Shown: positions 3,043 through 57,746 of the stretch, one piece after another
Position numbering within the stretch: position 1 is the stretch's first letter
Layout of the letters: every line of letters begins with the position of its first letter
NCBI GenBank assembly: GCA_002359655.1
Contig: DENL01000003.1
Location: forward strand, 7,418-71,417
Length of the DNA stretch: 64,000 nucleotides
From: Rickettsiales bacterium UBA2645
Lineage (GTDB): Bacteria > Pseudomonadota > Alphaproteobacteria > Rickettsiales > UBA1997
Direction: 5' to 3'
The notes under the pieces: model-generated
Told to the model about the DNA's origin: nothing
The model's database searches: none
Seen by the model: only the letters and a program-made list of their open reading frames with translations
Translations under genes and position numbers: made by a program

Positions 3043-4116
3043 TTAGCCAAATATGTGCTTCATTTTTTCTTCTAAGGCTAGAAAAGAAAATTTTGTTTTC
3101 AGGCGAGAAAAAGAATTTTCAACCAAAGCATCAAGCAATTGTGGATTTTCTGATATTTCAAGGACAACTTCAGCAATCCTTTGATCAAGGCTTTCTACAG
3201 GTTTTAAGGCAATAATTATTCCGTCAACTTTATCGCGTAAAATTTCTTTCGATCCGTCAGTATCGGTGGCAATTATTGGTTTGCGATATTTTATGGCCTC
3301 AAGCAAAACAAGGCCAAAAGTTTCGTTATCAGAAGCGCTGCAAAATATGTCGATTGACTGAAAAAATTCTTTTTTATTTTTAACCCAGCCACAAAATTCG
3401 ATTTGTTTTTCCAGATTTAATTTTTGGGTCAAGATCCGCAAATCTTTTTCGAAAGGCCCAGAGCCAGCAATCCTTAGAATAAATTTTTGTTTCGGATTTT
3501 TATTCGTTGCTATTTTTTGCAACTTCTCGATCGCTTTAATTAGATGATCAAAACCTTTTTTATCGTCAATTCTGGCCATGGCGCCAAGTGTGATCACGGC
3601 TTGTTTTTGTAAATTTACTCTTGGCGCAACTGTGATCGCATCATTCAAATCAACAGCATTTGGAATGACAAAGCTGCTGTCTTCTTTTTGACCAAGATCA
3701 ATAGTGCGATGAAAAATTTCACGATTAACCGAGAAAATTAAATCAGCACCAATTGAGCGCTTAACATTCATGCTGTGATTGACCGCGATGAGAAAAATTT
3801 TGTGATTGGGAAATTTTTTAATCGCTTTTTTTGCCAGAACCACCGATCTGCCAACATGCGCTATTACTGACATTGGGCTGAAATCTTGCAGAATTTTTTT
3901 TAGCTCTTTGATGGCAAAAATGTCGTAATCACCAAAGCGATTTGAGATTTTTTTAACTTCGATTCCAAGAAAGGAGATTTGATCGGCATAAGGCGCATCT
4001 TCTTTGACGATTGCCAGAACTTCGTGGCCTAAATTTTTTAAAACAACAAGGTAATCGACAAAAACTTGCTCAGCACCACCATTTTGCGAAGTAAGAATGA
4101 TGTTGAGGATTTTCAT
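3043..4116 (-). CDS. Glycosyltransferase family 4 (GT-B, RfaG-like)
   Basis: MKILNIILTSQNGGAEQV... N-terminus and the C-terminal E-x7-E region (..SDNETFGLVLLEAIKYRKPIIATD..) typical of GT4. Confidence 0.85.
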   Translation of the reverse strand: MKILNIILTSQNGGAEQVFVDYLVVLKNLGHEVLAIVKEDAPYADQISFLGIEVKKISNRFGDYDIFAIKELKKILQDFSPMSVIAHVGRSVVLAKKAIKKFPNHKIFLIAVNHSMNVKRSIGADLIFSVNREIFHRTIDLGQKEDSSFVIPNAVDLNDAITVAPRVNLQKQAVITLGAMARIDDKKGFDHLIKAIEKLQKIATNKNPKQKFILRIAGSGPFEKDLRILTQKLNLEKQIEFCGWVKNKKEFFQSIDIFCSASDNETFGLVLLEAIKYRKPIIATDTDGSKEILRDKVDGIIIALKPVESLDQRIAEVVLEISENPQLLDALVENSFSRLKTKFSFLALEEKMKHIFG

Positions 4117-4120
4117 TATT

Positions 4121-4876
4121 TTATTTTTTTATTTCATCAGACTTAAGGTCAGAAACTACAGGATAAAGACCACCAAGCACCGCAATCAAAAAACCTAAAG
4201 CGCCTTCTTTGTAACCTCTTTTAAAGAAGAAAGATTTTACGAATCTAAATTTAAAAGAAATTATTGCTTTTAGTAAGTTAGTTGAAGATTTTTTATTTCT
4301 AGCGAGATCATTAGCGCGCCATCTAGTGTAGCGATTAAAGCGGTTGAGTAAATCAGTGATGTCATCATCAACCAAATGAATTATCGGATTTTGTAAATAT
4401 TTTATTTCACAATTAAGATCGGCTGTCGGATGAATTTCTTTATCTTCGTGATATTTCTTTGATCCTAAATAATGAATAGTTTGACGAGCTTTAACGCCGA
4501 GAGTGCGAGGCCAGCCATATTCTACGTGGCGATCTCCAATGTAGTTAGCAATTGGCACAATAAAAGCGCAGGGCTTGCTGTCTTTTGTCGCTTGCATAAT
4601 TTCTGCAGCTAATTCTGGAGAAATTCTTTCATCGGCATCTATTTCTAAAATCCAATCAGATGTTGCAGCTTTATTAGCAACGTTGCGGCGCGCGCCTTCA
4701 AGATTCCACGAACCTTCTATTATTTTGTCGGTAAATTGTTGTACGATTTCTTTTGTTGAATCGGTGCATTTATCAAGCACAACTACGATCTCATCAACAA
4801 AGGAAAGACTCTTCAGGCAATCTTTAATTTTCTTTTCTTCATTATGCGCAACAACTACAGCAGAAATTTTATTCAT
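4121..4876 (-). CDS. Glycosyltransferase family 2 (LPS-core KdtX/WaaE-like)
   Basis: ISAVVVAHNEEKKIKDCLKSL..VVLDKCTDSTKEI ... LEIDADE: GT2 DxD-type fold, 251 aa. Confidence 0.8.
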   Translation of the reverse strand: MNKISAVVVAHNEEKKIKDCLKSLSFVDEIVVVLDKCTDSTKEIVQQFTDKIIEGSWNLEGARRNVANKAATSDWILEIDADERISPELAAEIMQATKDSKPCAFIVPIANYIGDRHVEYGWPRTLGVKARQTIHYLGSKKYHEDKEIHPTADLNCEIKYLQNPIIHLVDDDITDLLNRFNRYTRWRANDLARNKKSSTNLLKAIISFKFRFVKSFFFKRGYKEGALGFLIAVLGGLYPVVSDLKSDEIKK

Positions 4877-4935
4877 GGATATTTGTTAATTTAATTTAGT
4901 GATGAATTGGTCTGGACAGTTATTGGTTTTCAGAA

Positions 4936-4964
4936 TTGACTTGCTATCTTGCGAAAGATAGATT
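4936..4964 (+). promoter_or_regulatory. Candidate sigma70-type promoter of sodB (TTGACT-17 nt-TAGATT)
   Basis: TTGACT at 4936-4941, a 17-nt spacer, TAGATT at 4959-4964. This would place the transcription start at about the A of ATG 4972. Sequence pattern only. Confidence 0.3.
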
Positions 4965-4971
4965 TTTTTCC

Positions 4972-5712
4972 ATGCAATTGTCAAAAAGAAAATTCATCAA
5001 AACTGCTTTACTATCATCAGCTCTATTTTTTAGCGCCTGTAGAACTAGTTTCTCAAGCTTAAGAAAAAACGAGGGCGGTTCTCTATTACCCAAAACTAAC
5101 AATAAAAGAGGTTCATCTATGCCATTTGAATTACCAAAACTACCTTATGAAAGAAACTCCTTAGCACCTCACATCTCTGAGAACACTATAAATTTCCACT
5201 ACGGTAAACATCACCAAGCTTACGTAACCAATCTTAATAACCTTGTAAACGGCACTGATTTAGCCAACAAATCTTTGGAAGAAATCATCAAAATTTCTCA
5301 CTCTGATAAAAGCAAAGCTGGCATATTCAACAATGCAGCACAAGTTTGGAATCATACTTTTTATTGGCACTCAATGAAACCAAATGGTGGCGGTAAACCA
5401 TCAAAAGAAGTTTTAGCAAGAATTGAAGCTGACTTTGGTTCTTACGAAAATTTTGTTACCGAATTTAAAAACGCTGGTGCAACTCAGTTTGGTTCGGGTT
5501 GGGCTTGGTTGGTTCTTGAAAATGGTAAATTAAAAGTTACTAAAACTGGCAATGCCGAAACCCCAATCACAACTTCAGCAAAACCTTTGATGACAATGGA
5601 TGTTTGGGAACATGCTTATTACTTAGACTTTCAAAACGCCCGTCCAACTTACATCGATACCTTCTTGAATCACTTGGTTAATTGGGATTTTGTTGCTCAA
5701 AATTTAAAATAA
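4972..5712 (+). CDS. sodB: Fe/Mn superoxide dismutase with an unusual N-terminal extension; alternative internal start at 5119
   Basis: SOD core: MPFELPKLPYERNSLAPHISENTINFHYGKHHQAYVTNLN ... DVWEHAYYLDFQNARPTY. ATG 5119 has AAGAGG 8 nt upstream. The frame is open upstream to ATG 4972 (MQLSKRKFIKTALLSSALFFSAC...). The track start at 4936 (TTG) coincides with the putative -35 box and is unlikely. Confidence 0.9.
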   Translation: MQLSKRKFIKTALLSSALFFSACRTSFSSLRKNEGGSLLPKTNNKRGSSMPFELPKLPYERNSLAPHISENTINFHYGKHHQAYVTNLNNLVNGTDLANKSLEEIIKISHSDKSKAGIFNNAAQVWNHTFYWHSMKPNGGGKPSKEVLARIEADFGSYENFVTEFKNAGATQFGSGWAWLVLENGKLKVTKTGNAETPITTSAKPLMTMDVWEHAYYLDFQNARPTYIDTFLNHLVNWDFVAQNLK

Positions 5713-5721
5713 TTTGCCCTA

Positions 5722-6309
5722 ATGCGTACAGCTACAATAAAACGCGACACCAAAGAAACTAAAATCAAAGTCGAAGTTAATCTTGATGGAACTGGTAAAT
5801 ATAAGGTTGAAACTGGCATTGGTTTTCTAAATCACATGATCGAACAACTTTCTCACCACAGTTTGATTGATATTCATTTAGAAGTTAAAGGCGATCTACA
5901 CATCGATTTTCATCACACCACTGAAGACTCTGCCTTGGCAGTTGGTGAAGCCATCAAACAAGCTTTGGGTGATAAAAAAGGTATCACGCGTTTTGGTCAT
6001 TCTTACGTTCCAATGGACGAAACACTAAGTCGCGCCGTAATTGATTTATCTGGTCGCGCTTATCCAATTTTTAATTGCGAATTTAAACGCGATAAAATTG
6101 GCGAAATGGACTGTGAACTTTTCCGCGAATGGTTCCACGCTTTTGCCCAAAGCTGTGGATGCAATCTGCATATTGAAAATCTCTACGGTGTTAATAATCA
6201 CCATATTGTCGAATCTTGCTTCAAAGCTTTGGCAAGAGCGCTTCGCGAAGCAATAACAATTGATGAAAGAAAAAAAGATGCCATCAATTCTACAAAAGGT
6301 GTTTTATAA
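5722..6309 (+). CDS. hisB: Imidazoleglycerol-phosphate dehydratase
   Basis: [17 protein letters not shown]...[29 protein letters not shown]: full-length IGPD signature, 195 aa. Confidence 0.95.
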
Positions 6310-6312
6310 ATA

Positions 6313-7272
6313 ATGTCTCTTTTAAAAAAAATCGCGCAGAATACAAAAGCTCGTAAACCAGTAATTTACGGAGTTTCTAGCACTGTTTTAACTGACGAAG
6401 AAAAATATTTCTTTTCTAAAAATGGTGCGCTGGGATTTATTATTTTTGGTCGCAACATTGAAAATAAATCACAGTTAAAAAAATTAACCGACTCGCTTCG
6501 CGAAATTATGGAAGGCGAAGTTTTAATTTTGATCGATCAAGAAGGCGGTCGTGTTGCTCGCCTGAAAGAGCCGCATTGGAAAAAATACCCAGCAGGACAA
6601 TATTTTGCTGATCTTTATCAAACAAACAAAGATCAAGCTGGCGAAGAGTTATTTAAAAATTTCCAAGAGATTGGTCGTGATTTAACAGAAATGGGAATCA
6701 ATGTTGATTGCGCTCCAGTTCTGGATATTTTAACCGATAAAACTCATCGAGTTATTGGTGATCGCGCCTACGGCAAAGACGCTAAACAAGTTGCTGATTT
6801 AGGAAAAAAAGTTTGTGAAGGTTTGTTGTCACAAAATGTTTATCCAGTTATCAAACATATTCCGGGACACGGCCTTGGAACTTCTGACAGCCACTTAGAA
6901 TTACCAATTGTTGACGCTTCTTTGGAAGAATTAAGAGCCAGCGACTTCTTGCCTTTTCAAGAATTACGCCAACAAAAATTCGCCATGACTGCTCATATTT
7001 TATTTAGCGCTATCGACAAAGATAATTGTGCCACGGTTTCTAAAAATGCTGTAAGAATAATCCGCGATGAAATCGGCTTTAAAAATATTTTGATGAGTGA
7101 CGATGTTTCAATGAAGGCCTTAAAAGGCACTTTCTTTGAAAAATCACAAGCCATCTTAGAAGCCGGTTGCGACATTGTTTTGCATTGCAACGGCAAGATG
7201 GAAGAAATGGCAGAAATCAATTCTGCTTTACCAAATTTAAGCGACGATTTTCGTAATAAATTTATAAAATAA
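6313..7272 (+). CDS. nagZ: Beta-N-acetylhexosaminidase (GH3)
   Basis: GFIIFGRNI, LILIDQEGGRVARL, KHIPGHG..SDSHLELP motifs of GH3 NagZ. Confidence 0.9.
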   Translation: MSLLKKIAQNTKARKPVIYGVSSTVLTDEEKYFFSKNGALGFIIFGRNIENKSQLKKLTDSLREIMEGEVLILIDQEGGRVARLKEPHWKKYPAGQYFADLYQTNKDQAGEELFKNFQEIGRDLTEMGINVDCAPVLDILTDKTHRVIGDRAYGKDAKQVADLGKKVCEGLLSQNVYPVIKHIPGHGLGTSDSHLELPIVDASLEELRASDFLPFQELRQQKFAMTAHILFSAIDKDNCATVSKNAVRIIRDEIGFKNILMSDDVSMKALKGTFFEKSQAILEAGCDIVLHCNGKMEEMAEINSALPNLSDDFRNKFIK

Positions 7273-7883
7273 TGACGAACTACTTACATAAAAACGATCT
7301 GCCCTCAGACATTGAAATAGGAAATGTGGTAGCAATTGATTCTGAAACTATGGGTCTGAATATTTTTCGTGATCGTCTGTGCTTAGTGCAAATTTCTTCT
7401 GGTGACGGTAATGCTCATTTAGTAAATTTTGCACAAGGAAATTACAACGCACCAAATCTGCGCAAAATTTTAGCCAACGATAAAATCCAAAAAATATTTC
7501 ACTTTGCCCGCTTTGATTTAGCGGCTTTGCAATTTTATTTAAAAGTGGAAGTGAAGAATATTTATTGCACAAAAATCGCTTCAAAACTTGTACGCACTTA
7601 CACTGATTCACATGGCCTTAAAGCTCTTTGTGAAGAGTTGCTAAGCGTTGAGCTTTCTAAAAAACAACAAACTTCTGATTGGGGAAATTCGCAAATCAGT
7701 GATAAACAGATTGATTATGCCGCTTCTGACGTTTTGCATTTGCACAAATTGAAAGCAAAACTTGATGAAATGCTAATCAGAGAAGACCGTATGAATATTT
7801 TTCAGGCTTGTTTAGAATTTCTGCCAGCTCGCGTCAAACTTGATTTGCAAGGCTTTGGCTCTGCTGATATTTTTGCTCACTAG
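7272..7883 (+). CDS. rnd: Short RNase D-like 3'-5' exonuclease (DEDD)
   Basis: VAIDSETMGLN..DRLCLVQIS, FHFARFDL and YAASDVLHL exonuclease motifs; 203 aa, single domain. Confidence 0.85.
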   Translation: MTNYLHKNDLPSDIEIGNVVAIDSETMGLNIFRDRLCLVQISSGDGNAHLVNFAQGNYNAPNLRKILANDKIQKIFHFARFDLAALQFYLKVEVKNIYCTKIASKLVRTYTDSHGLKALCEELLSVELSKKQQTSDWGNSQISDKQIDYAASDVLHLHKLKAKLDEMLIREDRMNIFQACLEFLPARVKLDLQGFGSADIFAH

Positions 7884-8890
7884 TACATTCTTTCGTGAGA
7901 AGATTTTCCACGAAAAATATAATAAGAATAAATGGTGTAAACCAAAATTACTGGCAAGGTGACGACTAATCCCACAAACAAAAATGATAAAGATTCTGGC
8001 GCAGCAGCAACTTTTGAAAAAGGAACTTCATAAGGCAAGACATAAGGAAATAAAGTCACGGCAATTCCAAAGTAGCACAAAGTAAACAGCAAAATTGTCA
8101 GCACAAAGGGTTGAACTTCTTTTTTATTTAAGAGCGCTTTGATCAAAAAGAAAAAAGTCAACAAGGTTAAAAGCGGAATTGGACTTAAGTAAAAAATATT
8201 GGGCAGCGAAAACCATCTAAACAAAATTTTCTGATTCAAAAGTGGTGTCCAAGCACTGACTAAGAGAATAAAAAATCCAACAAAAACCAAAGCATAAAAT
8301 GCGCTCTGACGTGCCCAATCATGAGTTCTTCCGTGAGTTTTCATAATTAACCAAGTGCTACCAATAAGTGCGTAGCCAAAAATCAGAGCAACTCCTGTCA
8401 TTAAAGCAAAACCGTTAAACCAGCCTAAATAGTTTTTCACACAACATTCTAAACCAGAAACAAAACAGCCAAGCATTACGCCTTGAAAAAAAGTGGCGAT
8501 TAATGAACCGAAGTGAAAAGAATAATCCCAGATTTTTTGCTCGTTTTTTGATGTGGTTTTAAAGCGAAATTCAAAAGCTACGCCACGCAAAATCAATCCT
8601 AAAAGCATCAGAGTAATTGGTATGTAAAGAGCTGGCATAATTATTGAATAAGCGATCGGAAAAGCAGCAAAAAGCGCAGAACCTCCCATCACTAACCAAG
8701 TTTCATTGCCATCCCAAAATGGTGCGACAGAGTTCATCATTTTGCTGCGACATTCATCCGAAGGTGCGAAAGGAAATAAAATGCCAACTCCCAAATCAAA
8801 TCCGTCGAGCAAAACATAAAGAAAAATTGCCAGAGCAATCACCCCAACAAAGACTAAAGGCAAGTCAATAAAGGCAGAAATATTGAACAT
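7880..8890 (-). CDS. cydB: Cytochrome bd ubiquinol oxidase subunit II
   Basis: 336-aa membrane ORF (..LDGFDLGVGILFPF..WDGNETWLV..) immediately downstream of cydA. Confidence 0.93.
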   Translation of the reverse strand: MFNISAFIDLPLVFVGVIALAIFLYVLLDGFDLGVGILFPFAPSDECRSKMMNSVAPFWDGNETWLVMGGSALFAAFPIAYSIIMPALYIPITLMLLGLILRGVAFEFRFKTTSKNEQKIWDYSFHFGSLIATFFQGVMLGCFVSGLECCVKNYLGWFNGFALMTGVALIFGYALIGSTWLIMKTHGRTHDWARQSAFYALVFVGFFILLVSAWTPLLNQKILFRWFSLPNIFYLSPIPLLTLLTFFFLIKALLNKKEVQPFVLTILLFTLCYFGIAVTLFPYVLPYEVPFSKVAAAPESLSFLFVGLVVTLPVILVYTIYSYYIFRGKSSHERMY

Positions 8891-8911
8891 AATTTTATTA
8901 ATTTAACTTGT

Positions 8912-10216
8912 CTAAAAACCTTTTCTGATCAAACGCAAAATATAGAAAGTTGCGGCACCAAAAATTATAAAATAGATAAAAGCAAAGCTGAGCAAAGAAA
9001 AAGTAACTTGCTCTGAAACCACAGGAGAAGCGATGTCTTTTGTGGTAACAAAACCATAAACTACGTAAGGTTGACGACCAATTTCAGTAACAAACCAACC
9101 AGCAAGCAGCGCAATAAAGCCGCTTGGCGTCATTGCCATACACCAAAATTGAAACCATTTGCTGTTAAATAATTTTTTTCTGAAATTGAGAAATACTGCT
9201 AAAACTCCGGTTGTGAGCATCATCATTGCAATTGCAACCATAACGCGGAAGCTGAAAAATACTGGTGCAACTGGCGGTCTTTCGTTTTTTGCAACCGACT
9301 TCAAACCATAAATTTTTGCATTGGCATCGTGTTTTAAAATCAAGCTGGCCAATTTAGGAATTTTTATGGCGTATTTTGTGGCTTCACTTTCTTGATCAGG
9401 AAAGCCGAAAAGAGTCAGCGGTGCACCGACTTCATCTTCCCAGATTCCCTCCATCGCTGCGACTTTCATTGGCTGATATTTTAGCGTGTTCAAGCCATGC
9501 ATATCACCAATCAAAATTTGTAGTGGCGCAAAAATCACGATGAATGATAAAGCCATTTTAAACATTACTTTGGCATGATGAGCCGATTTTTTCTTCCACA
9601 AAAACCAAGCAGAAATTCCGCAGACTACAAAGGCGCAAGTTAAATAAGCTGCAACAACCATGTGAGTGAAGCGATATGGAAAAGAGGGATTGAAAATAGT
9701 TTTTAGCCAATCGGTGGAATAAAAAGTGATGTTGTAAATCATAAAACTCTGCGGCGTTTGCATCCAGCTATTAGCAGCGATAATCCAAAATGCTGAAATC
9801 AGAGTTCCAATCGCCACAATAATTGTTGAAGCAAAATGAATTTTTGGTGAAACGCGATTCCAACCAAATAGCATTATTCCTAAAAATGACGCTTCTAAAA
9901 AAAACGCCGTTAAAACTTCCATGCCAAATAAAGGGCCTAAAACATTGCCCAAACGCAGTGAAAATCCTGACCAGTTAGTACCAATTTCGTAAGAGATAAC
10001 CAGACCAGAAACCACACCCATACCGAAAATAATGGCAAAAATTTTGACCCAGAATTTATAGATTTCTTTGTAAGTTTTATCTTTGGTTTTCAAATAAAGC
10101 GCTTCAACACAGGCTAAATATCCCGCAAGTCCAATGGTAAAGGCAGGGAAAATAATGTGGAAACTCATTGTGAAAGCGAACTGAATTCGCGCTAGAATTA
10201 GCGGATCAAATGTCAT
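8912..10216 (-). CDS. cydA: Cytochrome bd ubiquinol oxidase subunit I (short Q-loop type)
   Basis: LARIQFAFTMSFHIIFPAFTIGLA.. N-terminus and ..GWFVTEIGRQPYVVYG.. near the C-terminus; 434 aa. Confidence 0.93.
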   Translation of the reverse strand: MTFDPLILARIQFAFTMSFHIIFPAFTIGLAGYLACVEALYLKTKDKTYKEIYKFWVKIFAIIFGMGVVSGLVISYEIGTNWSGFSLRLGNVLGPLFGMEVLTAFFLEASFLGIMLFGWNRVSPKIHFASTIIVAIGTLISAFWIIAANSWMQTPQSFMIYNITFYSTDWLKTIFNPSFPYRFTHMVVAAYLTCAFVVCGISAWFLWKKKSAHHAKVMFKMALSFIVIFAPLQILIGDMHGLNTLKYQPMKVAAMEGIWEDEVGAPLTLFGFPDQESEATKYAIKIPKLASLILKHDANAKIYGLKSVAKNERPPVAPVFFSFRVMVAIAMMMLTTGVLAVFLNFRKKLFNSKWFQFWCMAMTPSGFIALLAGWFVTEIGRQPYVVYGFVTTKDIASPVVSEQVTFSLLSFAFIYFIIFGAATFYILRLIRKGF

Positions 10217-10516
10217 AAATAAATTTAATTAAATTAAACTTTTTATTTAAATGTCGCCAAAGGAGTTTTTGAAGTTGAATGTAAAAACTGCCAAAAAAAT
10301 AAGCTCTCGATGCAACATCTAAAAAATGTTAACCAGCTATAACTAGATACTATCAATGAGAAGTTAGTCAAGTCAGATTTATTAGACTTGAGTAGATTAG
10401 TCGATTCAATTTGATTCTAAGATTTTGTCATCGGTAGCGACAACAACAAAATCTCAGAAAAGTTTTTTGATTTATCGGATTATTTTAGAAAATTTTCTAA
10501 AGAAGATAAAAGTTAT

Positions 10517-11101
10517 TTATTTGGCAATATTAGCTTCAACTTCAATTACCAATTCAACATTGTCAGATACTGCAGGAACTGCGTAGTTAATTCCGAATTC
10601 TGAGCGCTTGATTGTTGCAGTTGCAGAAAAGCCAATGGTTGGTTTTTGCGTTACAACGCTAACATCAGATTTATTAAACTTTGCGTTTAAAGTAACTGGC
10701 TTGGTTACACCATGCAAAGTCAACTCACCTTCAATTTTAGCTTTATTTTTGCCAGTAACTTTAATTTTTTTGCTAACAAATTTTGTAGTCGGGAATTTTT
10801 CTGCATCAAAGAAATCAGCACTTTTTAAATGCTTATCAAACTTCGGCAAACCAGTAACCAAGCTGTCAATTTTAATAGTCACATCAACTGAAGAATTTTC
10901 TGGCTTTTTTTCGTCGAAATTAATTTCGCCAGAAACATCAGAAAATTTTCCTGACTGATTTGAAAAGCCAAAATGATTAGCAAACCAAAGCACGTAAGCG
11001 TGATTAGATTCAATTTGATATTTCACAGCTTCAGCAGAAGCATTTTGAGCAATAAAAACAGAGGCAAGAATTGCCAATGAGATTAATTTTAGTTTTTTCA
11101 T
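10517..11101 (-). CDS. YceI-family periplasmic (polyisoprenoid-binding) protein
   Basis: Signal peptide MKKLKLISLAILASVFIAQNASA, then YQIESNHAYVLWFANHFGFSNQSGKF..G.I.FD: YceI pattern. Confidence 0.85.
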   Translation of the reverse strand: MKKLKLISLAILASVFIAQNASAEAVKYQIESNHAYVLWFANHFGFSNQSGKFSDVSGEINFDEKKPENSSVDVTIKIDSLVTGLPKFDKHLKSADFFDAEKFPTTKFVSKKIKVTGKNKAKIEGELTLHGVTKPVTLNAKFNKSDVSVVTQKPTIGFSATATIKRSEFGINYAVPAVSDNVELVIEVEANIAK

Positions 11102-12304: not shown

Positions 12305-12529
12305 ATGAAAAAAATTCGCAACCCTCGCCTATTATTTCCTTTCTTTATGGCGTTGATTATGGCTTTTGTGATGTCGGGATTTATGACTTTAATCAATCGC
12401 GGTTTGATTGAAAATTTCTTTTTCGTATGGATGCACTCATTTGTTTATGCTTTCTTTGTGGCGTTTCCAACTGCTTATTTTGTAGCACCACAAGTACAAA
12501 AATTAGTAAAAAAAATCTGCGAAGCTTAA
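12305..12529 (+). CDS. DUF2798-like small membrane protein
   Basis: 74 aa with two hydrophobic helices (FFMALIMAFVMSGFMTLIN.G ... FFVAFPTAYFVAP). I recall this family as a frequent HxlR neighbour. Confidence 0.6.
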   Translation: MKKIRNPRLLFPFFMALIMAFVMSGFMTLINRGLIENFFFVWMHSFVYAFFVAFPTAYFVAPQVQKLVKKICEA

Positions 12530-15291
12530 ATAATAACTTCAACCAATTTTTCTTCCGCTATCAATTCAATTTTTTTGGCGTTGCAAACATTAGCTAAATC
12601 TTCGACGAATTTTTCAATGCCAACAACCCTTGCAACTCTTACCTTCTCAACAGTTGTTTTCATTGAAATATTTTTTTCTGACTTAAATTTGCGAACTTCA
12701 AAAATCACTTCCAACAATAATTTTCCATCTTCGATTAAACTTTGATCAAAAAATTTCTCATCAAGTTTTGGCCAGTTACCTCTAGCATTTATCGACTGAG
12801 TTTTAGTAAATTCTTCAGCAAAAAGTGCTGAGTAAATTTCGTCACAAATATGCGGAATAAAAGGCGCAAAAAGTTTCAGAATTGTGTTTAAACAAATTTC
12901 TAAAGCTTTGATTGCACTTTGTTGTTTAGCTTGAATTTCTGCTTTTTGTAAATCGCTAAGCTTAGTTCCAACAAGCTTTTCTGCTGCCAAACCGTAAGAG
13001 CGAACTTTGCAAATTTCTAAATAATTGTCGCAAAAATCACGCCAGAAAAATTCTTCAATTGCTTCGCGAGCTTTGGCATATTCAAACTTCTCAAACTCGG
13101 CTGTGGCGCGTTTTACGGTTTCTTGTAAACGACTCAAAATCCAAAGATCTGAAGCTTGCGTAACTTTTGCATCTTCACGCAATAATTCAAAATTCATCGA
13201 AGCAAATTTCGCGGCGTTAAAAAGTTTGGTAATTAATTTTTGGCCGATTTTAAAAACATCTTCAATGTAAGCAGTGTCAGCACCCAAATGCGAAGTTGAA
13301 GCCCAATAGCGCACAATATCTGAACCTTTTTCTTCAATCAGAGAAGTTGGAGTCACCACATTGCCTTTTGATTTACTCATTTTGGTTTTATCGGCAGCTA
13401 AGCACCAGCCCGAGATCATCAAGTTTTTCCACGGCACAGAATTTTGATGCAAAGTCGATTTTACTAAAGTGTAAAAAGCCCAAGTACGAATGATTTCATG
13501 AGCTTGTGGACGAAGATCGGCTGGGAAAAGTTTTTCGTGACGCTGTTGGTCGAAAGAAATTTCAGCAGAAATTCCTTTGCTTGAAAGTTGTGGGCTAATT
13601 GAAGAAGTCGCCCAAGTGTCCATGATGTCAGTTTCAGCTGTAACTTCTGCGCGTGAGTATCCGCGAGGCAAATCAATTGCCGGATCGCAGGGAAGTTGAT
13701 CAACATCTGCAACTAAAATTTTTCCTTCTTCGCCTGCCCGCTTGGAATACCAAACTGGAAAAGCCACACCGAAAAAACGCTGGCGGCTGATACACCAATC
13801 CCATTGCAAACCATCAATCCATTGATCGATGCGCACTTTCATATATTCAGGGAACCAATTGCACTCAGCAGCTTTGGCTTTGAGCAAATCTTTTTTGTCG
13901 AGAATTTTAATAAACCATTGTGGCACTACCAGAATTTCGATTGGCACACCAGAGCGCTCGGCGCATTTCACGGCGCGTTTGATGGTTTCTTGTTTAAGTA
14001 GAATGCTCGAGTTAATACCTTCCCCTTGAGGGAGGGTCGAAGTCGCTTGCGACTTCAAGGCGGGGTTAGATTGCGATGTAACTTCAGATTCGTAACCCCT
14101 CACCGAAGGGCTTAAGCCCTTCGACTCCCCCTCAAGGGGGGAGTGATTAGATCGAGTGTTTTTTAAAGCTTCTATTATTGCTTCTTTAGCTTGTTTAATG
14201 GTTTTGCCAGCTACTAAACTTTCATAAAAATTAAAAAATATTTTCAGATCAACGCATTCGGATTTTTTTAAGTTCCATACTTCAATGATGTTTCCTTTTT
14301 GATAATCATTTGAACCAAATTCTAACTCTGTAAAATCATCAGCAAACTTAAAAGACTGATAGCAAGAAGAAATTCTGCCGTCTTTTTCGATAATTATTCT
14401 TAAATCCAAGTTATGCCTCTTCCACCATCTGATGTCAGTTTCATCACCAAAAGTACAACACATTACCGCGCCAGTTCCTTTATCGAGCTGAACTAAATCG
14501 TCAGGAATAATTTTTACTTTCACGCCAAAAAGTGGCGTGATGGCATTTTGTCCGTGGAGTTTTTTGTAGCGCTCATCTTCCGGGTGAACCATGACAGCAA
14601 CGCAAGCCGGCAATAGCTCGGGACGAGTTGTCATTATTTCAAGTTTTTCGTCTGAACCTTCGATGCCAAATAAGATGTAATTCATTTGGCCTTCAACTTC
14701 TTTGTCTACAAGATCAGCTTGCGCTAGAGCGGTGCGGTCGGAAATGTCCCAGAAAACTGGTTCGAATTTTTTTTCTACTAATTTTTTATTGTAGAGATCA
14801 ACAAAACTCGCTTGCGAAATTTTTTGCGATTCAGGTGAAATCGTTTGATATTTCTGCTTCCAATCAACTGACAAAGCAATTGAGTTAAAGAGAATTTCAA
14901 ATTCTTTTTCCGCGTCATCAACAACTTCGCGACATTTTTTTACAAAAGATCCACGGCCATTTTCTGCCTCAAAAACTCCAGCTTTTTTTTCAATAATTTT
15001 TTCAACTAAACGCTCAGTTGGCAGGCCGTTATCGTCAAAGCCCATCGGGTAGAAAACATCTTTGCCATACATGCGCATGAAACGCGCTACGAAATCAGCC
15101 TGAGAATAAGAGAAAACATGTCCCATATGTAAAACGCCTGAAACTGTAGGAGGCGGAGTGTCGATTACAAAAGTTTGGTTTTTTGGTAAATCGTTTTTGA
15201 AAGCGAAAATTTGTTTTTCTAACCAGTGGTTTTGCCAGAATTTTTCGCGAGCTTTTGGATCATAGCGATCGGGTAGTTTTTTTTCAGACAT
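12526..15291 (-). CDS. valS: Valyl-tRNA synthetase, archaeal/Rickettsia type, carrying an in-frame repeat insertion
   Basis: TPPPTVSGVLHMGHVFSYSQADF, PMGFDDNGLPTE and KMSKSKGNVV class-I motifs; 921 aa. Confidence 0.95.
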   Translation of the reverse strand: MSEKKLPDRYDPKAREKFWQNHWLEKQIFAFKNDLPKNQTFVIDTPPPTVSGVLHMGHVFSYSQADFVARFMRMYGKDVFYPMGFDDNGLPTERLVEKIIEKKAGVFEAENGRGSFVKKCREVVDDAEKEFEILFNSIALSVDWKQKYQTISPESQKISQASFVDLYNKKLVEKKFEPVFWDISDRTALAQADLVDKEVEGQMNYILFGIEGSDEKLEIMTTRPELLPACVAVMVHPEDERYKKLHGQNAITPLFGVKVKIIPDDLVQLDKGTGAVMCCTFGDETDIRWWKRHNLDLRIIIEKDGRISSCYQSFKFADDFTELEFGSNDYQKGNIIEVWNLKKSECVDLKIFFNFYESLVAGKTIKQAKEAIIEALKNTRSNHSPLEGESKGLSPSVRGYESEVTSQSNPALKSQATSTLPQGEGINSSILLKQETIKRAVKCAERSGVPIEILVVPQWFIKILDKKDLLKAKAAECNWFPEYMKVRIDQWIDGLQWDWCISRQRFFGVAFPVWYSKRAGEEGKILVADVDQLPCDPAIDLPRGYSRAEVTAETDIMDTWATSSISPQLSSKGISAEISFDQQRHEKLFPADLRPQAHEIIRTWAFYTLVKSTLHQNSVPWKNLMISGWCLAADKTKMSKSKGNVVTPTSLIEEKGSDIVRYWASTSHLGADTAYIEDVFKIGQKLITKLFNAAKFASMNFELLREDAKVTQASDLWILSRLQETVKRATAEFEKFEYAKAREAIEEFFWRDFCDNYLEICKVRSYGLAAEKLVGTKLSDLQKAEIQAKQQSAIKALEICLNTILKLFAPFIPHICDEIYSALFAEEFTKTQSINARGNWPKLDEKFFDQSLIEDGKLLLEVIFEVRKFKSEKNISMKTTVEKVRVARVVGIEKFVEDLANVCNAKKIELIAEEKLVEVII
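14006..14156. repeat. RPE-like modular palindromic element, copy A (inside valS)
   Basis: GC-rich island with terminal inverted repeats (ctcgagttaataccttccccttgaggg... / ...ccctcaaggggggagtgattagatcgag). It shares modules with 42716-42852, 54380-54527 and 57564-57746. Boundaries are accurate to a few nt. Confidence 0.85.
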
Positions 15292-41584: not shown

Positions 41585-42280
41585 CTAATTGCTTACAATA
41601 ATTTTTGTTTCTTCTTCAATAATTTTGCCGCCGGCTTCTTTTGCTAAAAGAGTAAATGGTTTATAAAGCTCATAATTTTGATTTTTAAAAATTGCTTTTT
41701 CTAAACGCGAAGAAGCAACATAAGCCAGTTCTAAAGTACGACAGCCGTAAGAGCGCAGCGATTGATTTTTTTCAGTAAGCAAAGATGGTTCTTCGCTAGC
41801 AATCAAAAGTTCACCGCTATTTCTTCTAGAAACGCGAATGCGGCGATTATTAGCATAAGCGCCAAAACCTTTTTCACAGTAGAAAGCTTCACCACCAAAA
41901 ACTTTGCTGATCGCGGCTGAAATTGATTCTTTCTGGCCATTTATAGCGCGATGTTGTAAGGCAACAGCAACTGTAAAATCAGGGTTAGCACGAATTAAAT
42001 TATCGAAACCATCAACTGGGTGAATGATGTAGGAGTATTCAGCATCTTGACTGCGAATTAGATTTTTCTCATCCGAAAAAATTAAGTTATATTCGGGACG
42101 CAATTTTGAAAATTCGTCTGCTAAAACTTGCTTGACACGATTATAACAAGCTGCAGCAAATTTTACGGCAGAAGTTGGATTTGATTGCAAATTTTCTAGT
42201 TCAATAAAATCACGCGGCATGTGAGACGTGGCTTTTTCTATGGCTTTTAGAATGATATTTAGGTTGGCACTATAGCGCAT
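41585..42280 (-). CDS. Inositol monophosphatase-family protein (short)
   Basis: ..YIIHPVDGFDNLIR.. (the DP.DGT.NF-like motif) and overall IMPase-like layout; 231 aa. Confidence 0.7.
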   Translation of the reverse strand: MRYSANLNIILKAIEKATSHMPRDFIELENLQSNPTSAVKFAAACYNRVKQVLADEFSKLRPEYNLIFSDEKNLIRSQDAEYSYIIHPVDGFDNLIRANPDFTVAVALQHRAINGQKESISAAISKVFGGEAFYCEKGFGAYANNRRIRVSRRNSGELLIASEEPSLLTEKNQSLRSYGCRTLELAYVASSRLEKAIFKNQNYELYKPFTLLAKEAGGKIIEEETKIIVSN

Positions 42281-44205
42281 TAGTATTTTCTTGATTGAAG
42301 AGTTAAATTAAGATCAGGAATTGCAGATATGTTTCTCACAGCTTTGAGCGAAAATTCCAGCTTATTTTCTGAAGCATCAGAAATTTTAACCAAACTATGA
42401 GCATGAAAATTTTGATCATCACGATTTTTAAAATCCGAGCGATAGTGAGCCCCACGACTCTCACGACGATTCAAAGCTGCAAAATTTGTTGCTAGAGAAT
42501 TCAAAAAAAGATTTTTCAATTCAAAGTAAGCAACCAACTCTTCATTCCAAATCAGATTTTTATTTTGGATTTTATAGTTTTTAAAAATTGCAAAAAGTTC
42601 TTTGGTTTTTTCAATTCCGCTTTTCAATAATTTTTCTTCGCGAAAAACGCCTAAGTTTTTTTCGTTATTTTCTTGCAAAAGTTTTTTTAGTGTTGGCAAA
42701 ACAGAGATTTTTTCGGCGTAGTAATCCTCTCCTTGAGAGAGGATCGAAGAGCGCAGCGATTCGAGTGGGGGTGTAACTGAAAGTTTTTCACCCCTCACCG
42801 ACTCAGGCAAGCTTAGTCGACTCTCCCTCAAGGGGAGAGTGATCAGATCGAATTTAGTTTTATCTGCATGAGAAAAAATATTTTTCAGTTTTTCAATTTT
42901 TTCAGAAGCGATTTTATCTGAATTTTTAATTGCTTGCTGGGCTATTTTTTCTGCCGCTTTTTTGCCAGCGATCTTACCAAAAACAATTAAATCAAGCAGT
43001 GAGTTGCAACCAAGTCGATTAGCACCATGCACTGAAACACAAGCTGCTTCGCCAATTGCCATCAATCCAGAAATTTCTTTTTCGCCATCAATAACAATAC
43101 AATCAAGATTAGTTGGAATGCCGCCCATTGTGTAATGCGCTGAAGGGCTGACAGGAATCAGATCTTTTTCGACATCAAGACGAGAGAATTTTTTTACCAA
43201 CTCAACAACTCCGGGAAGTTTATTATTTAGGACTTCAGAGCCTAAATGACGTAGATCGAGATTAAGAAAATTTTTATTAACACCAGCTCCACGACCTTCA
43301 AAAATTTCTGTTGCCATGGCTTGCGAAATAACATCGCGCGAAGCCAGCTCCATCATTTTTGGTGCATATCTTTGCATAAAGCGCTCGCCTTCAGAGTTAA
43401 GCAAGTAGCCACCCTCACCTCTTGCAGCTTCTGTTATCAAAAATCCGTAACCATGAATTCCAGTTGGATGAAATTGCACAAACTCCATATCTTGCAAAGC
43501 CAACCCTTCTTCAAAAATAAAAGCTGAACCATCGCCACTACAGATTAAAGATGAGGTAGTATTTTGATAAATTTGGCTGTAGCCACCAGTTGCGAGAATC
43601 ACTATTTTACTTTCAAAAATTATTAACTCGCCAGAATTTAAATCGACTGCTACACAGCCGTGACAACTTGATTTATCTTCAATCAATAGATCGGTGATAA
43701 AAAATTCTGAGAAAAATTTTACGCCATTTTTCAAAGCTTGTTCATACAAAGTGTGCAGAATTGTATGACCTGTTTTATCTTTTGAGTAGCAAGCGCGATA
43801 GGCTATTTCGCCTTGTCCGAAGTTAGTAGTTTGACCGCCATAAGCGCGTTGTGAAATTTTGCCGTCATGACTGCGCGAAAAAACCACGCCCATTTTTTCT
43901 AAATCTAGAATTGATGCTTCAGCTTCACGACAGAGAATTTCAACTGCATCGTTGTCGGCCAAATAATCAGCACCCTTCAAGGTGTCGTAAGCATGCCATT
44001 GCCAATTATCGTTTTTAACATTGCTAAGCGCTGCGTTGATTCCGCCTTTAGCTGAAACTGTGTGACTATTGGTTGGAATGACTTTGCTAATTACAGCAAT
44101 ATTTTTTGCACCAGAATTAATTGCTGAAATCGCTGCCATCAAACCAGCGCCGCCAGATCCAACAATTATTATGTCGAATTGTTTTTTTGAGATTGAAAAA
44201 TCCAC
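42280..44205 (-). CDS. sdhA: Succinate dehydrogenase/fumarate reductase-type flavoprotein subunit, orphan, carrying an in-frame repeat insertion
   Basis: [31 protein letters not shown] (covalent-FAD His context), [38 protein letters not shown]. No sdhB, sdhC or sdhD nearby. Confidence 0.8.
42716..42852. repeat. RPE-like modular palindromic element, copy B (inside the sdhA-like gene)
   Basis: ..taatcctctccttgagagaggatcgaagagcgcagcgattcgag...cccctcaccgactcaggcaagcttagtcgactctccctcaaggggagagtgatcagatcgaa. It shares its left module with copy D and its right module with copies A and D. Confidence 0.85.
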
Positions 44206-50400: not shown

Positions 50401-50873
50401 TAAATCAATCCCAAATAAAAGGTAAATTGATTCACAAAATTTTAGAAATTTTTGGTAAAAATTCTGCCGCAGAAAAAAAATGGTTAGGCGAAATTTCTAA
50501 AAAAATTATTGCTCGAGAAGAATTTTTATCAGTAGTAGAAAAAAATAAAATTAATGACGAGATCAATGAATTTTTGGCTTCAGAGCAATTCAAAGAAATA
50601 TTTTCCGGTCAAATAAAATGTGAAGTTGAGATCGCTGGCAATATTAAAAATGAAAAATTTCTTAAACGAATTGATCTGCTAATCGAGAAAGAAAACGAGG
50701 TTTTAATTGTTGATTATAAATCAGACGAGACTTTGCCAGAAGCGGCTCCCAAGCATTATTTTGACCAACTAAAAACTTACGCAGAATTAGTAAAAAAACT
50801 TTATCCAAACAAAAAAATTTCTTGTGCAATTTTATGGATTAAGTTTTTGAAGTTAGAATTTTTAAATCTCTAA
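47469..50873 (+). CDS. addA: Double-strand-break repair helicase-nuclease AddA (UvrD-like helicase plus C-terminal PD-(D/E)xK nuclease), GTG start
   Basis: VFASAGSGKTRVLT Walker A, LIDESQDTN, VGDEKQSIYSFQGA, TIHSAKGLQAP, YVAMTRAEDEL, and the C-terminal nuclease motif IDLLIEKENEVLIVDYKSD. Confidence 0.88.
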   Translation: MTNNLAQTINLQQFASSPDISCWVFASAGSGKTRVLTNRVLRLLLRGVAPDKILCLTFTKVAASEMQSRINAELANWVLVDEANLAKKLFELTGNIASKADLKKARILFAEVLDAESKIKIQTIHSFCQSLVKIFPFEAGVKPNFEVLEEAQEKLLLQKAQKEVLKKAVKNSELKNLVVKINSRLHEASFSELVSDLLAKKEQLTILKENFFGIDGVIDEIFKNFSVNKNSNAAEICDEFFKSINKQEVDKLLIALEESGLISNKNIAEKVRKFLQNPSEEKFLIYQSAFFTDKNEIRKINGKVLQNPDLERIATDQINLISSFCDQINSYKICNSSALLLKFTDAILEIYAVLKKQNAFLDYNDLIIETNRLLANPNFSDWVKMKMDGLFDHILIDESQDTNHQQWNIIKALTEDFFSGISAANKNRTIFIVGDEKQSIYSFQGAEPHISGEIFFYFDEKLKNHPNKFHKIDLNNSFRSLSEILGVVDATFSGEKEKAAIAKISDFKGHSAIRQGVGHFEIWPQIKIKKEEKTKNADKDYSWKIDFVPRENYHEQEFLAELIAIKIKDWVENKRVLQSRIETLKYSDFMILLRKRTDGFDQILSRFFYQYQIPFGGKNKIKFDDNIIIQDLLAAARFALSPFDDLNLAALLKSPIFNINEEELLEICLFKNNNQTSIYKALKQIPKFANISIYLEVLEKKAVQTNCFEFFYFLLSQENRQKIISRFNSESSEILDKFVLKVFDFANNFSASLQKFLEFIESFNPEISVTTENNNQVLITTIHSAKGLQAPIVIIPDCCFDTDRLRSTKEKISWIEFAENKLPIWCAAKNEENKLLKTNRELKKQQAKDEYLRLLYVAMTRAEDELYIAGSGNFNDSESWYDLIKKSVADKCWQKEFFDEKTKKLNSDKFEISNEILGIGEKKYQYAENNLFINNSIVFDEKPQISFKTKEKKLNKSSVPLAKDDNIFTEIKSSQNQINQSQIKGKLIHKILEIFGKNSAAEKKWLGEISKKIIAREEFLSVVEKNKINDEINEFLASEQFKEIFSGQIKCEVEIAGNIKNEKFLKRIDLLIEKENEVLIVDYKSDETLPEAAPKHYFDQLKTYAELVKKLYPNKKISCAILWIKFLKLEFLNL

Positions 50874-53883: not shown

Positions 53884-54417
53884 ATGCAGAAAAAATCAAA
53901 ACCAAAACCAACCTATCGCAAGCGCACTTTAAGCCGACTTATTGCCATTCAAATTTTTTACCAATTTGAGTTTTACGAAAAAAAAATTCCTCTCGCAGAA
54001 GTCAAAAATAATGTCATCGATAATTATGTTCTCGAGCAAGAAGAAACTGTTAGCTCTTATCGCAAAAAAATTGATCTCAATCTTTTAGAAACTTTGCTTG
54101 CTGGCATCAATCTTGGAGTCGAAGAAATTGATCACGATATTTTTGGCCTACTGAAAAGTGGTTGGGATTTAGAAAAACTGCCAGACGTGATGCTATATAT
54201 TCTGCGCCTTGGCGCTTTCGAATTGAAATTTATGCACGACGTTCCGCTGAAAGTTGTTTTGGACGAATATGTCGATATTTCCGCCAGTTTTTTTGAAACA
54301 AAAAAAGTTACCTTCTTAAACGCAACGCTAGAAAATTTAGCCAAACATTATCGCGCTGCAGAATTTGAAAAAGTAAAGAGTCGATCCAATCACTCCCCCC
54401 TTGAGGGGAGAAAATAG
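53884..54417 (+). CDS. nusB: Transcription antitermination factor NusB (C-terminal 10 aa and stop supplied by repeat copy C)
   Basis: RLIAIQIFYQFEF... and ..ILRLGAFEL......P.KVVLDEYV.I...F: NusB fold. The tail RSNHSPLEGRK* is identical to the first residues of the valS insert. Confidence 0.85.
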   Translation: MQKKSKPKPTYRKRTLSRLIAIQIFYQFEFYEKKIPLAEVKNNVIDNYVLEQEETVSSYRKKIDLNLLETLLAGINLGVEEIDHDIFGLLKSGWDLEKLPDVMLYILRLGAFELKFMHDVPLKVVLDEYVDISASFFETKKVTFLNATLENLAKHYRAAEFEKVKSRSNHSPLEGRK

Positions 54418-54527
54418 CCTAAACGGCTATTTTCGGCTTTTAAGATACTCGAGGGTTTTGTAATAAACCCCTCCTCGAATCGCTGCGCTCTTCGATCCTC
54501 CCTCAGGGGGAGGATAATTAGATCGAG
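54380..54527. repeat. RPE-like modular palindromic element, copy C (nusB 3' end and nusB-rimM spacer)
   Basis: tcgatccaatcactccccccttgaggggag + hairpin aaaatagcc-taaac-ggctatttt + ...cccctcctcgaatcgctgcgctcttcgatcctccctcagggggaggataattagatcgag. Its reverse complement matches 57564 to about 57685. Confidence 0.85.
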
Positions 54528-57563: not shown

Positions 57564-57746
57564 CTCGATCTAATCATCCTCCCCCTGAGGGAGGATCGAA
57601 GAGCGCAGCGATTCGAGGAGGGGTTTATTACAAAAGCCTCGAGTACCTTAAAGGACGAAAATAGCCGTTTAGGCTATTTTCTCCCCTCACCGACTCAACC
57701 GAAGGTTTCGTCGACTCTCCCTCAAGGGGAGAGTGATTAGATCTAG
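57564..57746. repeat. RPE-like modular palindromic element, copy D (intergenic, composite L+M+R)
   Basis: ctcgatctaatcatcctccccctgagggaggatcgaagagcgcagcgattcgaggaggggt...gaaaatagccgtttaggctattttctcccctcaccgactcaaccgaaggtttcgtcgactctccctcaaggggagagtgattagatctag. Confidence 0.85.

Follow-up and report, generated by a model that had tools for sequence, protein, structure and literature searches.

A palindromic element in frame in valS of a Rickettsiales bacterium and its relationship to hairpin-flanked DUF559 nuclease genes

The valS gene of the Rickettsiales bacterium UBA2645, which encodes valine--tRNA ligase (ValS), contains a 151-bp GC-rich palindromic element in frame; the gene lies in a 64-kb stretch of contig DENL01000003.1, which was analysed at its full length of 64,000 nucleotides and is referred to here as the window. 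The block is considered, with a probability of roughly 65%, to be the translated-through, nuclease-less shell of a DUF559-associated, homing-like hairpin element that cycles through a loop of ValS by recombination. The reading draws on orthologous valS genes in which the same termini enclose a DUF559 domain, on empty versions of the same site, on the selection acting on the nuclease and its termini, and on a pair of alleles that differ by the element and its flank. In-frame palindromic repeats have been known in Rickettsia since 2000, and the original prediction, made from the letters of the window, described the valS block as resembling the Rickettsia palindromic elements (RPEs).

The valS element and its insertion site

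The valS open reading frame (ORF) matches PRK13208 (valine--tRNA ligase) with 1000 bits against a curated cut-off of 738, and thousands of ValS homologues were found for its product. The ratio of nonsynonymous to synonymous substitution (dN/dS) relative to three orthologues is 0.12, 0.084 and 0.078; purifying selection of this strength (0.078-0.120) therefore rules out a pseudogene, a state which the original prediction had named as incompatible with its account. The gene, the element and its terminal modules are placed as follows:

12526..15291, minus strand: valS, archaeal-type valine--tRNA ligase of 921 aa, intact (ORF, PRK13208 match, dN/dS)
14006..14156, minus strand: palindromic element of family A in its short form (no nuclease gene), in frame in valS
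14094..14156, minus strand: 5' terminal module in the sense of the gene (nhmmer E 5.6e-17)
14006..14064, plus strand: 3' terminal module in the sense of the gene, an inverted copy of the 5' module (nhmmer E 8e-13)

A GC-rich block that keeps the valS frame had been proposed, and was found at 14006-14156 with a GC content of 51-54% compared to a window mean of 35.7%; the insert peptide quoted earlier is exact and corresponds to ValS residues 380-429 (the element encodes T and 11 further residues … STLPQGEGINSS). The inverted-repeat termini described at the same time were recovered as well, and pair over 21 nt with 90% complementarity, with small hairpins within each terminus. The predicted fold of the element has a free energy of -36.9 kcal/mol as DNA (z -5.8) and -75.3 kcal/mol as RNA (z -7.3), and in neither case did any of 200 shuffled sequences fold as well. 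Within the 5' module, an outer CTCGATCTAATCAC is joined by hairpin 1, whose arms are 14124-14131 and 14137-14144, by hairpin 2, with arms at 14104-14113 and 14114-14123, and by a G-box, GTGAGGGGTT, at 14094-14103; hairpin 2 of the 3' module is formed by 14039-14046 and 14049-14056. A 23-mer from the terminus has six matches in the window at three or fewer mismatches, where 0.00 are expected. Of the three reading frames across the terminal repeat, two are open, and each of these is in use; the other holds TAA or TGA. At gathering thresholds no Rfam family, intron families included, matches anywhere in the window.

That the valS block was inserted follows from the empty site of close orthologues. 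In a survey of 120 close ValS homologues, uninterrupted orthologues read …IKQFKEKVIEDLKAKN directly followed by LLLKQETIKRAVKCAERSG…, many of them being proteins of ~820 aa (…DLKAKN joined to LLLKQE…), which bears out the earlier expectation that the extra residues are lineage-specific; the empty site was confirmed at the DNA level in loci L003 and L018. Relative to this site the insertion comprises the element plus 2 nt, without a flanking repeat. The earlier figure of about 50 added residues is close, though not exact: the insertion measures 153 nt, or 51 codons, against empty orthologues, and the two codons that differ immediately upstream bring the net gain to 49 codons. In every ValS orthologue the ORF is continuous and the frame is kept whatever the length of the insert; removal of the segment from the mRNA is therefore unlikely, since keeping the frame would then be pointless.

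Aligned to the ValRS of T. thermophilus (1gax), the site falls between residues 301 and 331, in the turn that follows a helix, where the connective polypeptide 1 (CP1) editing domain has its C-terminal end; from this alignment the insert is predicted to lie exposed in a permissive surface loop. An AlphaFold2 model of the window ValS, built from an alignment of 66 sequences, displays the insert as a low-confidence coil between a confident helix and strand, and is given little weight because its mean pLDDT is only 63.6.

Upstream of the element (14157-14400, ValS residues ~308-362) the CP1 editing domain contains a separate AT-rich hypervariable segment, whose length in close orthologues varies from 0 to ~70 residues and whose sequences in different lineages are unrelated; it is replaced along with the element between loci L017 and L018. 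The empty locus L003 features a 95-aa GIY-YIG nuclease ORF (4427-4714) directly downstream of valS.

Nuclease-bearing long forms and the terminal modules

In at least seven independent assemblies (P0002, P0048, P0056/L017, P0064/L015, P0071/L016, P0103/L002 and L006) the same termini enclose a complete DUF559 domain of ~110 residues, in frame in valS, giving ValS proteins of 1019-1059 aa. The long insert matches PF04480 with an E-value of 4.6e-44 over profile positions 3-108 of 109, and its DUF559 domain matches the solved DUF559 protein in PDB entry 3hrl with 2.5e-34; residues D79, E90, D92 and H96 are invariant in the long forms. The ends of the window element are homologous in DNA to both ends of the long element of L002, in which the nuclease ORF is placed between …GAGGGGT and ACCCC…. 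Judged from these comparisons, the repeat in the window is the nuclease-less form of a larger element that encodes a DUF559/Vsr-like putative endonuclease.

DUF559 is a large family without an assigned function. In a survey of the PD-(D/E)XK superfamily, Vsr, DUF559 and DUF2726 were placed in one clade (PMC3424549), to which I-Bth0305I, a group I intron homing endonuclease, belongs (PMC3239194). In Caulobacter, the DUF559 protein VsrA damages DNA in vivo and is interpreted as a mismatch-repair nuclease of the very short patch (VSP) type (PMC12907096); furthermore, predicted inversion targets are enriched in DUF559 genes (PMC9881135), and DUF559-containing repeats are recombination hotspots in Legionella (PMC12308824). 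No hairpin-flanked mobile DUF559 unit is described in the open-access literature searched, in which 25 papers mention DUF559.

The terminal modules were analysed from 50 unique termini of the collected loci, which display a common plan of ~60 nt: the outer CTCGATCTAATCAC, the conserved hairpin 1 (CCCC-TTGA-GGGG), a hairpin 2 that varies in sequence but is palindromic throughout, and a G-rich box. Hairpin 1 occurs with 14 distinct 5' arms, nearly all of which form perfect 8-bp Watson-Crick stems (arm pairs ACCCTCCC/GGGAGGGT, ACTCCCCC/GGGGGAGT, ACCCGCCC/GGGCGGGT and GCTCCCCC/GGGGGAGC); hairpin 2 is found in 30 arm variants, with perfect stems of at least 7 bp in 64% of termini as against 0.2% of shuffles. 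The hairpin stems are maintained by compensatory changes, and the strictly Watson-Crick stem pairs suggest that the termini act as a palindrome at the DNA level, be it hairpin, cruciform or symmetric site for a protein, and not as an RNA-only structure.

Selection was compared in five valS long forms. The DUF559 core has a dN/dS of 0.06-0.15, indistinguishable from that of host valS, at a proportion of synonymous differences (pS) of 0.51-0.70, which is near saturation, whereas the termini have a dN/dS of ~0.4-1.4 at a pS of just 0.10-0.35; this contrast shows that the core is kept as protein and the termini as nucleic acid. Between the window and its closest locus, L001 (82-87% nucleotide identity), the left terminus is 97% identical with a pS of 0.00, compared to ~0.48 for flanking valS.

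At the valS site, the hypervariable hairpin 2 is found in the same version in short and long forms. The L017 long form has at both of its ends the very hairpin 2 seen at the right end of the window element (GAAGTCGC-tt-GCGACTTC), and the stem at the left end of the window element (CGAAGGGC…GCCCTTCG) recurs in the L006 long form; the hairpin-2 sequences of the remaining three window copies differ from those of the valS copy. Among the 120 homologues, the peptide …KSQATSTLPQGEG is also common to short and long forms at this site. A hypervariable hairpin common to both forms therefore places them in one element lineage, in which the short valS element is related by descent, at the valS site itself, to the nuclease-bearing form. 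The change could have run in either direction, through loss of the nuclease ORF from a long form or through invasion of a resident short element by the nuclease ORF. The inner right boundary reads N-P-[SA] in all short forms at valS and D-P-[SA] in all long forms, which hints that short forms also spread as such.

In stand-alone DUF559 genes (P0135, P0152, P0165 and P0172 compared to P0124-P0126) the G-box of the 5' module, translated as …RWGE, precedes the Met of the shorter ORF calls (MKRSY…/MARSY…); from its position directly before the start Met, the G-box may also serve the nuclease as a ribosome-binding site. In the valS long forms no Met follows the G-box.

Movement of the element between valS alleles, together with flanking sequence, is seen in one pair of loci. 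L017, with the long form, and L018, which is empty, are 97-99% identical over the valS locus and differ in a replaced block that measures 739 nt in the one and 67 nt in the other. Of the 17 upstream valS mismatches, 15 lie within ~95 nt just before this block, and no mismatch occurs in the 1,835 nt downstream of the element. What separates the two alleles of this single pair is thus the element and, with it, ~300 nt of diverged valS sequence upstream, a pattern that fits recombinational copying from a diverged allele and does not fit cut-and-paste; this is what either homing with co-conversion or plain allelic recombination would give.

Further copies, insertion hotspot and distribution

The three related copies named in the original prediction are all real (BLASTN E 2e-10 to 4e-7, plus alignment). 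With an nhmmer profile of the termini, exactly eight were located in the window, corresponding to four elements of 139-183 bp in 64 kb; those outside valS are the following:

42713..42851, minus strand: copy 2, in frame in sdhA (ORF 42280-44205, minus strand; nhmmer, SdhA profiles)
54381..54527, plus strand: copy 3, over the 3' end of nusB (53884-54417, plus strand; nhmmer, alignment)
57564..57746, minus strand: copy 4, intergenic, 183 bp, with an extra central hairpin (nhmmer, alignment)

The in-frame position of the sdhA copy and the overlap of copy 3 with the end of nusB are additions to the original account. The sdhA copy is read in the other open frame than the valS copy and adds ~47 residues; the SdhA profile match is split at residues 460/509, and SdhA profiles and solved structures align to ~422-460 and resume at ~506, leaving an excess of ~48 aa in the interdomain linker between the FAD-binding and C-terminal domains. 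Copy 3, which is without one inner hairpin module, gives nusB its last residues (…SRSNHSPLEGRK) and its stop codon; the NusB profile stops at residue 155 of 177, 22 residues before the end of the protein. The intergenic copy contains stop codons in the frames used by the other copies.

At least three palindrome families, unrelated to one another, have this valS codon as a hotspot. In orthologues this position holds family A, family B, family C, short D-type or compound B+A inserts, all of which start directly after AAAAAYA. Family A, to which the window element belongs, reads RSNH[SP]PLEG…STLPQGEG; family B (PSQTGFVTPSEGSL…NPVLRS) is a 96-nt near-perfect palindrome with a folding free energy (ΔG) of -54 kcal/mol (at the same valS codon of L043, 6001-8697), and family C (CHPERSEGSQ…) is a palindrome with a ΔG of -44 kcal/mol (at that codon of L044, 10001-12760). 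Families B, C and D were not found in the 64-kb window. The presence, absence and replacement of inserts are scattered over the ValS tree. Among the RPEs of Rickettsia, families RPE-4, -6 and -7 likewise occur near the same position in orthologues, and insertion hotspots are not excluded there (PMC3767692).

The outermost CTCGA…/…CTCGAG-like ends are common to families A and B, and family C contains an ATGAC/GTCAT motif, which is typical of RPE-4, -6 and -7 (PMC3767692). Solo half-elements are also tolerated in frame, at a second ValS site in L016 (4212-4271; …NEIEF, then SVYNPPLEGGSKSESDSGRG, then QDTIVIMTTRPE…) and twice in an IleRS-like ORF in L007 (7369-7425 and 7882-7943), ~190 residues apart.

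When 185,579 species genomes were scanned for the exact terminal 23-mer, the matches were confined to five uncultured Rickettsiales metagenome-assembled genomes (MAGs), the window's own genome not being among them; 24 metagenome stretches also contain the 23-mer. The exact scan, by which diverged copies could be missed, found the motif in none of the named Rickettsia, Wolbachia and Orientia reference genomes; it is absent from the viral contigs searched, and the element has no match in PLSDB plasmids. Two of the MAGs that carry the element are titled 'uncultured Rhizobium sp.' (CAZDLU01, L004/L013) and 'Rickettsia typhi' (CAMDOL01, L007); these titles look wrong, since in gene content and synteny both MAGs fit the uncultured Rickettsiales clade to which the window belongs.

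The collected loci yield a catalogue of 26 paired elements and 31 solo half-elements. In-frame internal copies are found in valS, sdhA, a type IIG restriction-modification (R-M)/PglX-like ORF of ~1150 aa, the IleRS-like ORF and the second ValS site; the R-M/PglX-like ORF features a short in-frame element in two metagenomes (L038, 817-987; L041, 4731-4902). With loci fetched through ValS excluded, ~6 of 23 pairs are in frame inside genes, with the remainder between genes or at their ends. When five short insert peptides were combined into a profile and searched against a collection of 5.8 billion proteins, the only matches were six weak ones to tiny ORFs, which were uninformative as to host proteins. 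Tandem arrays of solo 5' modules in the same orientation, ~150-200 nt apart, occur in L012 (6720-7173), L032 (390-750), L038 (1589-1852) and L039 (12087-12194), and give spurious ORFs of repeated units.

The hairpin extends well beyond this lineage in association with DUF559. A profile of the long inserts was used to find DUF559 homologues, of which the best 120 matches were examined. Stand-alone DUF559 ORFs in many bacteria have N- and C-terminal extensions that are three-frame translations of the hairpin in either orientation (forward NHSPLEGES and TPPLRGSR; reverse TPPQGGSD, DSPSRGE and LRLPLKGGV); exact hairpin-1 motifs are present in 60 of the 120, and in 48 of the 64 with at least 150 aa. 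Several homologues are in-frame fusions to HsdS, a GTPase, an IspE-like or an HsdR-like protein. In L045, a 2.7-Mb contig of a 54%-GC bacterium, an identical CACTCCCCCCTTGAGGGGGAGTC, a variable palindrome and then GGTGGGGGG are repeated five to six times in 8.6 kb and bracket two DUF559 ORFs adjoining hsdM and hsdS (4001-8597); this module has no match in E. coli genomes. In L046, from an AT-rich lineage, a DUF559 ORF with terminus arrays follows a fragmented type IIG (Eco57I-like) methylase gene (5584-10885).

Proposed mechanism, known systems and competing explanations

It is proposed that the element is not spliced but translated through; in-frame copies in a permissive surface loop would persist as 45-55 extra residues because two of the three frames of each terminus are open, and the long form with its nuclease would add ~165 residues. 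The DUF559 nuclease is hypothesized to recognise or nick the hairpin modules or the empty site and to trigger recombinational copying, in a homing-like cycle that would lead from the empty site to the nuclease-plus form, the nuclease-minus shell and back to the empty site; it may also mobilise short shells in trans to new sites. The use of a Vsr-fold nuclease as a homing endonuclease provides a precedent (PMC3239194, PMC3424549). The odds that the DUF559 nuclease drives the movement of the element are considered roughly even.

A broader proposal is made tentatively, and with somewhat more doubt than confidence: a widespread, apparently undescribed selfish class may exist in which a DUF559 homing-type nuclease lies between hairpin modules, translation-through takes the place of splicing, and nuclease-less shells appear as RPE-like palindromes. 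If this were true, a selfish class with a whole nuclease domain could live in frame in essential genes such as valS, and would offer a candidate mechanism for the origin and movement of RPE-type in-frame palindromes. The family is in any case a sister-lineage counterpart of the RPE phenomenon with a candidate enzyme, as its termini carry a selectively maintained DUF559. The long form is also a rare example of an essential aminoacyl-tRNA synthetase that holds a whole endonuclease domain in frame; the DNA module conserved across distant bacteria (23-nt hairpin, variable palindrome, G-box) provides a testable substrate for DUF559, and the inserts give a natural map of insertion-tolerant positions in ValS, SdhA and IleRS.

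The element resembles homing endonucleases of the Vsr-fold EDxHD type, such as I-Bth0305I, in the Vsr-like fold of its long form (PMC3239194, PMC3424549), in the filling of the same codon of an essential gene across diverged lineages, beside empty sites and nuclease-less remnants, and in the replacement of the flank along with the element (L017/L018). It differs from them in that neither an intron nor an intein is present (no Hint domain and no intron family match), the hairpin modules would stay in the mRNA and be translated, and many short copies lie at unrelated, non-homologous sites. Repetitive extragenic palindromic sequences (REPs) and their REP-associated tyrosine transposase (RAYT), together the REPtron, offer another comparison; RAYT is an HUH/Y1 enzyme related to IS200/IS605 TnpA, and REPs are extragenic. 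Multicopy hairpins, a single nuclease gene bracketed by repeats and compensatory upkeep of stems are shared with this system; however, the nuclease associated with the valS family is a PD-(D/E)XK Vsr-fold DUF559 protein, its copies are often intragenic and in frame, and no Y1 transposase was found among the neighbouring genes of any locus. Transposable elements of the miniature inverted-repeat type (MITEs, among them Correia, ERIC and Nezha) are similarly small, non-autonomous and multicopy, with terminal inverted repeats; they are non-coding derivatives and occasionally form in-frame fusions with host ORFs (PMC10969869); the family differs from them by the lack of a target-site duplication and by a cognate long form which has the same ends and encodes a DUF559/Vsr-fold nuclease, a fold not known as a transposase.

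The designation 'RPE-like' in the original prediction holds for behaviour, namely a mobile-type palindrome in frame in essential genes of a Rickettsiales-like genome, and is not supported as to membership in the RPE families. RPEs and Wolbachia palindromic elements (WPEs) are interspersed palindromes of ~100-150 bp in Rickettsiales, of which a sizeable fraction lie in frame in essential genes, tRNA synthetases included, and leave them unbroken; the peptides encoded by RPEs are located in solvent-exposed regions (PMC10969869, PMC3767692, PMC1779305). It is very improbable that the element is a diverged member of RPE-1 to RPE-10 or of the WPEs, despite its matching size, palindromic fold, in-frame insertion in an essential gene that encodes an aminoacyl-tRNA synthetase and Rickettsiales host (PMC10969869; PMC1779305), and despite the differing families known at nearby orthologue positions for RPE-4, -6 and -7 (PMC3767692). 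The insert peptides, in both frames used, have no NCBIfam (E<=10) or Pfam (E<=1) match, although the NCBIfam release may not contain RPE-domain models, and the contrast was drawn with these peptide models and the 23-mer scan rather than with published RPE DNA consensuses. The element has no detectable sequence or HMM similarity to RPEs and, by exact scan, is absent from Rickettsia and Wolbachia genomes, as it is from Orientia references and plasmids; its termini are GC-rich with two hairpins, and the inner CCCC-TTGA-GGGG hairpin is instead common to DUF559 genes of distant Proteobacteria, far outside Rickettsiales. Its long form contains a DUF559 nuclease, while no nuclease or transposase partner, enzyme or parent element is described for RPEs in the literature searched. 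Hardly credible is a vertically inherited ValS expansion segment, or an intein or intron, as an account of the valS insert, even though this region of ValS is length-variable in the clade, with an adjacent AT-rich segment of 0 to ~70 aa; related copies are present in sdhA, at the 3' end of nusB and in intergenic DNA, empty sites occur in sister lineages, including the 97-99% identical pair, and these copies elsewhere together with the filled/empty polymorphism led to rejection of all three. The insert begins T-R-S-N-H and ends …INSS before an I, with no splice-junction residues, no Hint or intein Pfam match and no Rfam intron match, and the ORF is continuous in every orthologue.

Several observations weigh against a homing-like element driven by its nuclease, and some of them favour a separate explanation in which an independent REP- or MITE-like hairpin family is moved by another enzyme, with DUF559 as its cargo or as a secondary invader; it might, for instance, be a homing endonuclease gene that stands alone, or a Vsr-type repair gene or one accessory to R-M, with a preference for landing in palindromes. 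Most copies have no DUF559, and the window, with four short copies, contains no DUF559 gene; solo half-modules and tandem arrays exist, and 39 of the 57 catalogued copies are intergenic or solo halves at unrelated sites without common flanks, which homology-dependent homing cannot explain. The flanks of the catalogued copies display no convincing target-site duplication or clear insertion motif. The modules around one DUF559 ORF of L045 are direct rather than inverted repeats; DUF559 genes are repeatedly found beside R-M genes (hsdM/hsdS and type IIG), and this neighbourhood, with the reading of a DUF559 protein as a VSP-repair nuclease (PMC12907096), implies that the nuclease could be cargo or have a host function. 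The N-P-[SA]/D-P-[SA] boundary is compatible with short forms spreading as such, and every long form with these exact termini sits in valS, so one ancient fusion followed by recombination is also compatible with the data. The nuclease activity, target and mobility of this DUF559 clade are putative, and surface exposure of the insert rests on the 1gax alignment since the ValS model is poor. The cargo explanation is nevertheless considered unlikely: DUF559 and the hairpin are tightly associated with conserved junctions across distant bacteria (the 60/120 and 48/64 homologues above), the nuclease is held at a dN/dS of ~0.1 while embedded in ValS with its catalytic-type residues invariant, and no transposase-like gene lies next to any copy in ~430 kb of loci. 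The preferred reading is therefore still that of a nuclease-less shell of a DUF559-associated element.

Two further features of the window lie outside the element. On the minus strand at 52131-53783, carB is present as its N-terminal half only (550 aa, ending …YMYSSYES) and is adjoined by a lysA-like gene (50862-52121), so that carB is split or truncated. An ORF of 499 aa on the minus strand at 55187-56686 has a long region of low complexity, rich in Pro, Thr and Ser (…PTSQPSTANPSNFPTSNPS…), and is hydrophobic in a C-terminal segment; its product may be a surface or secreted protein.

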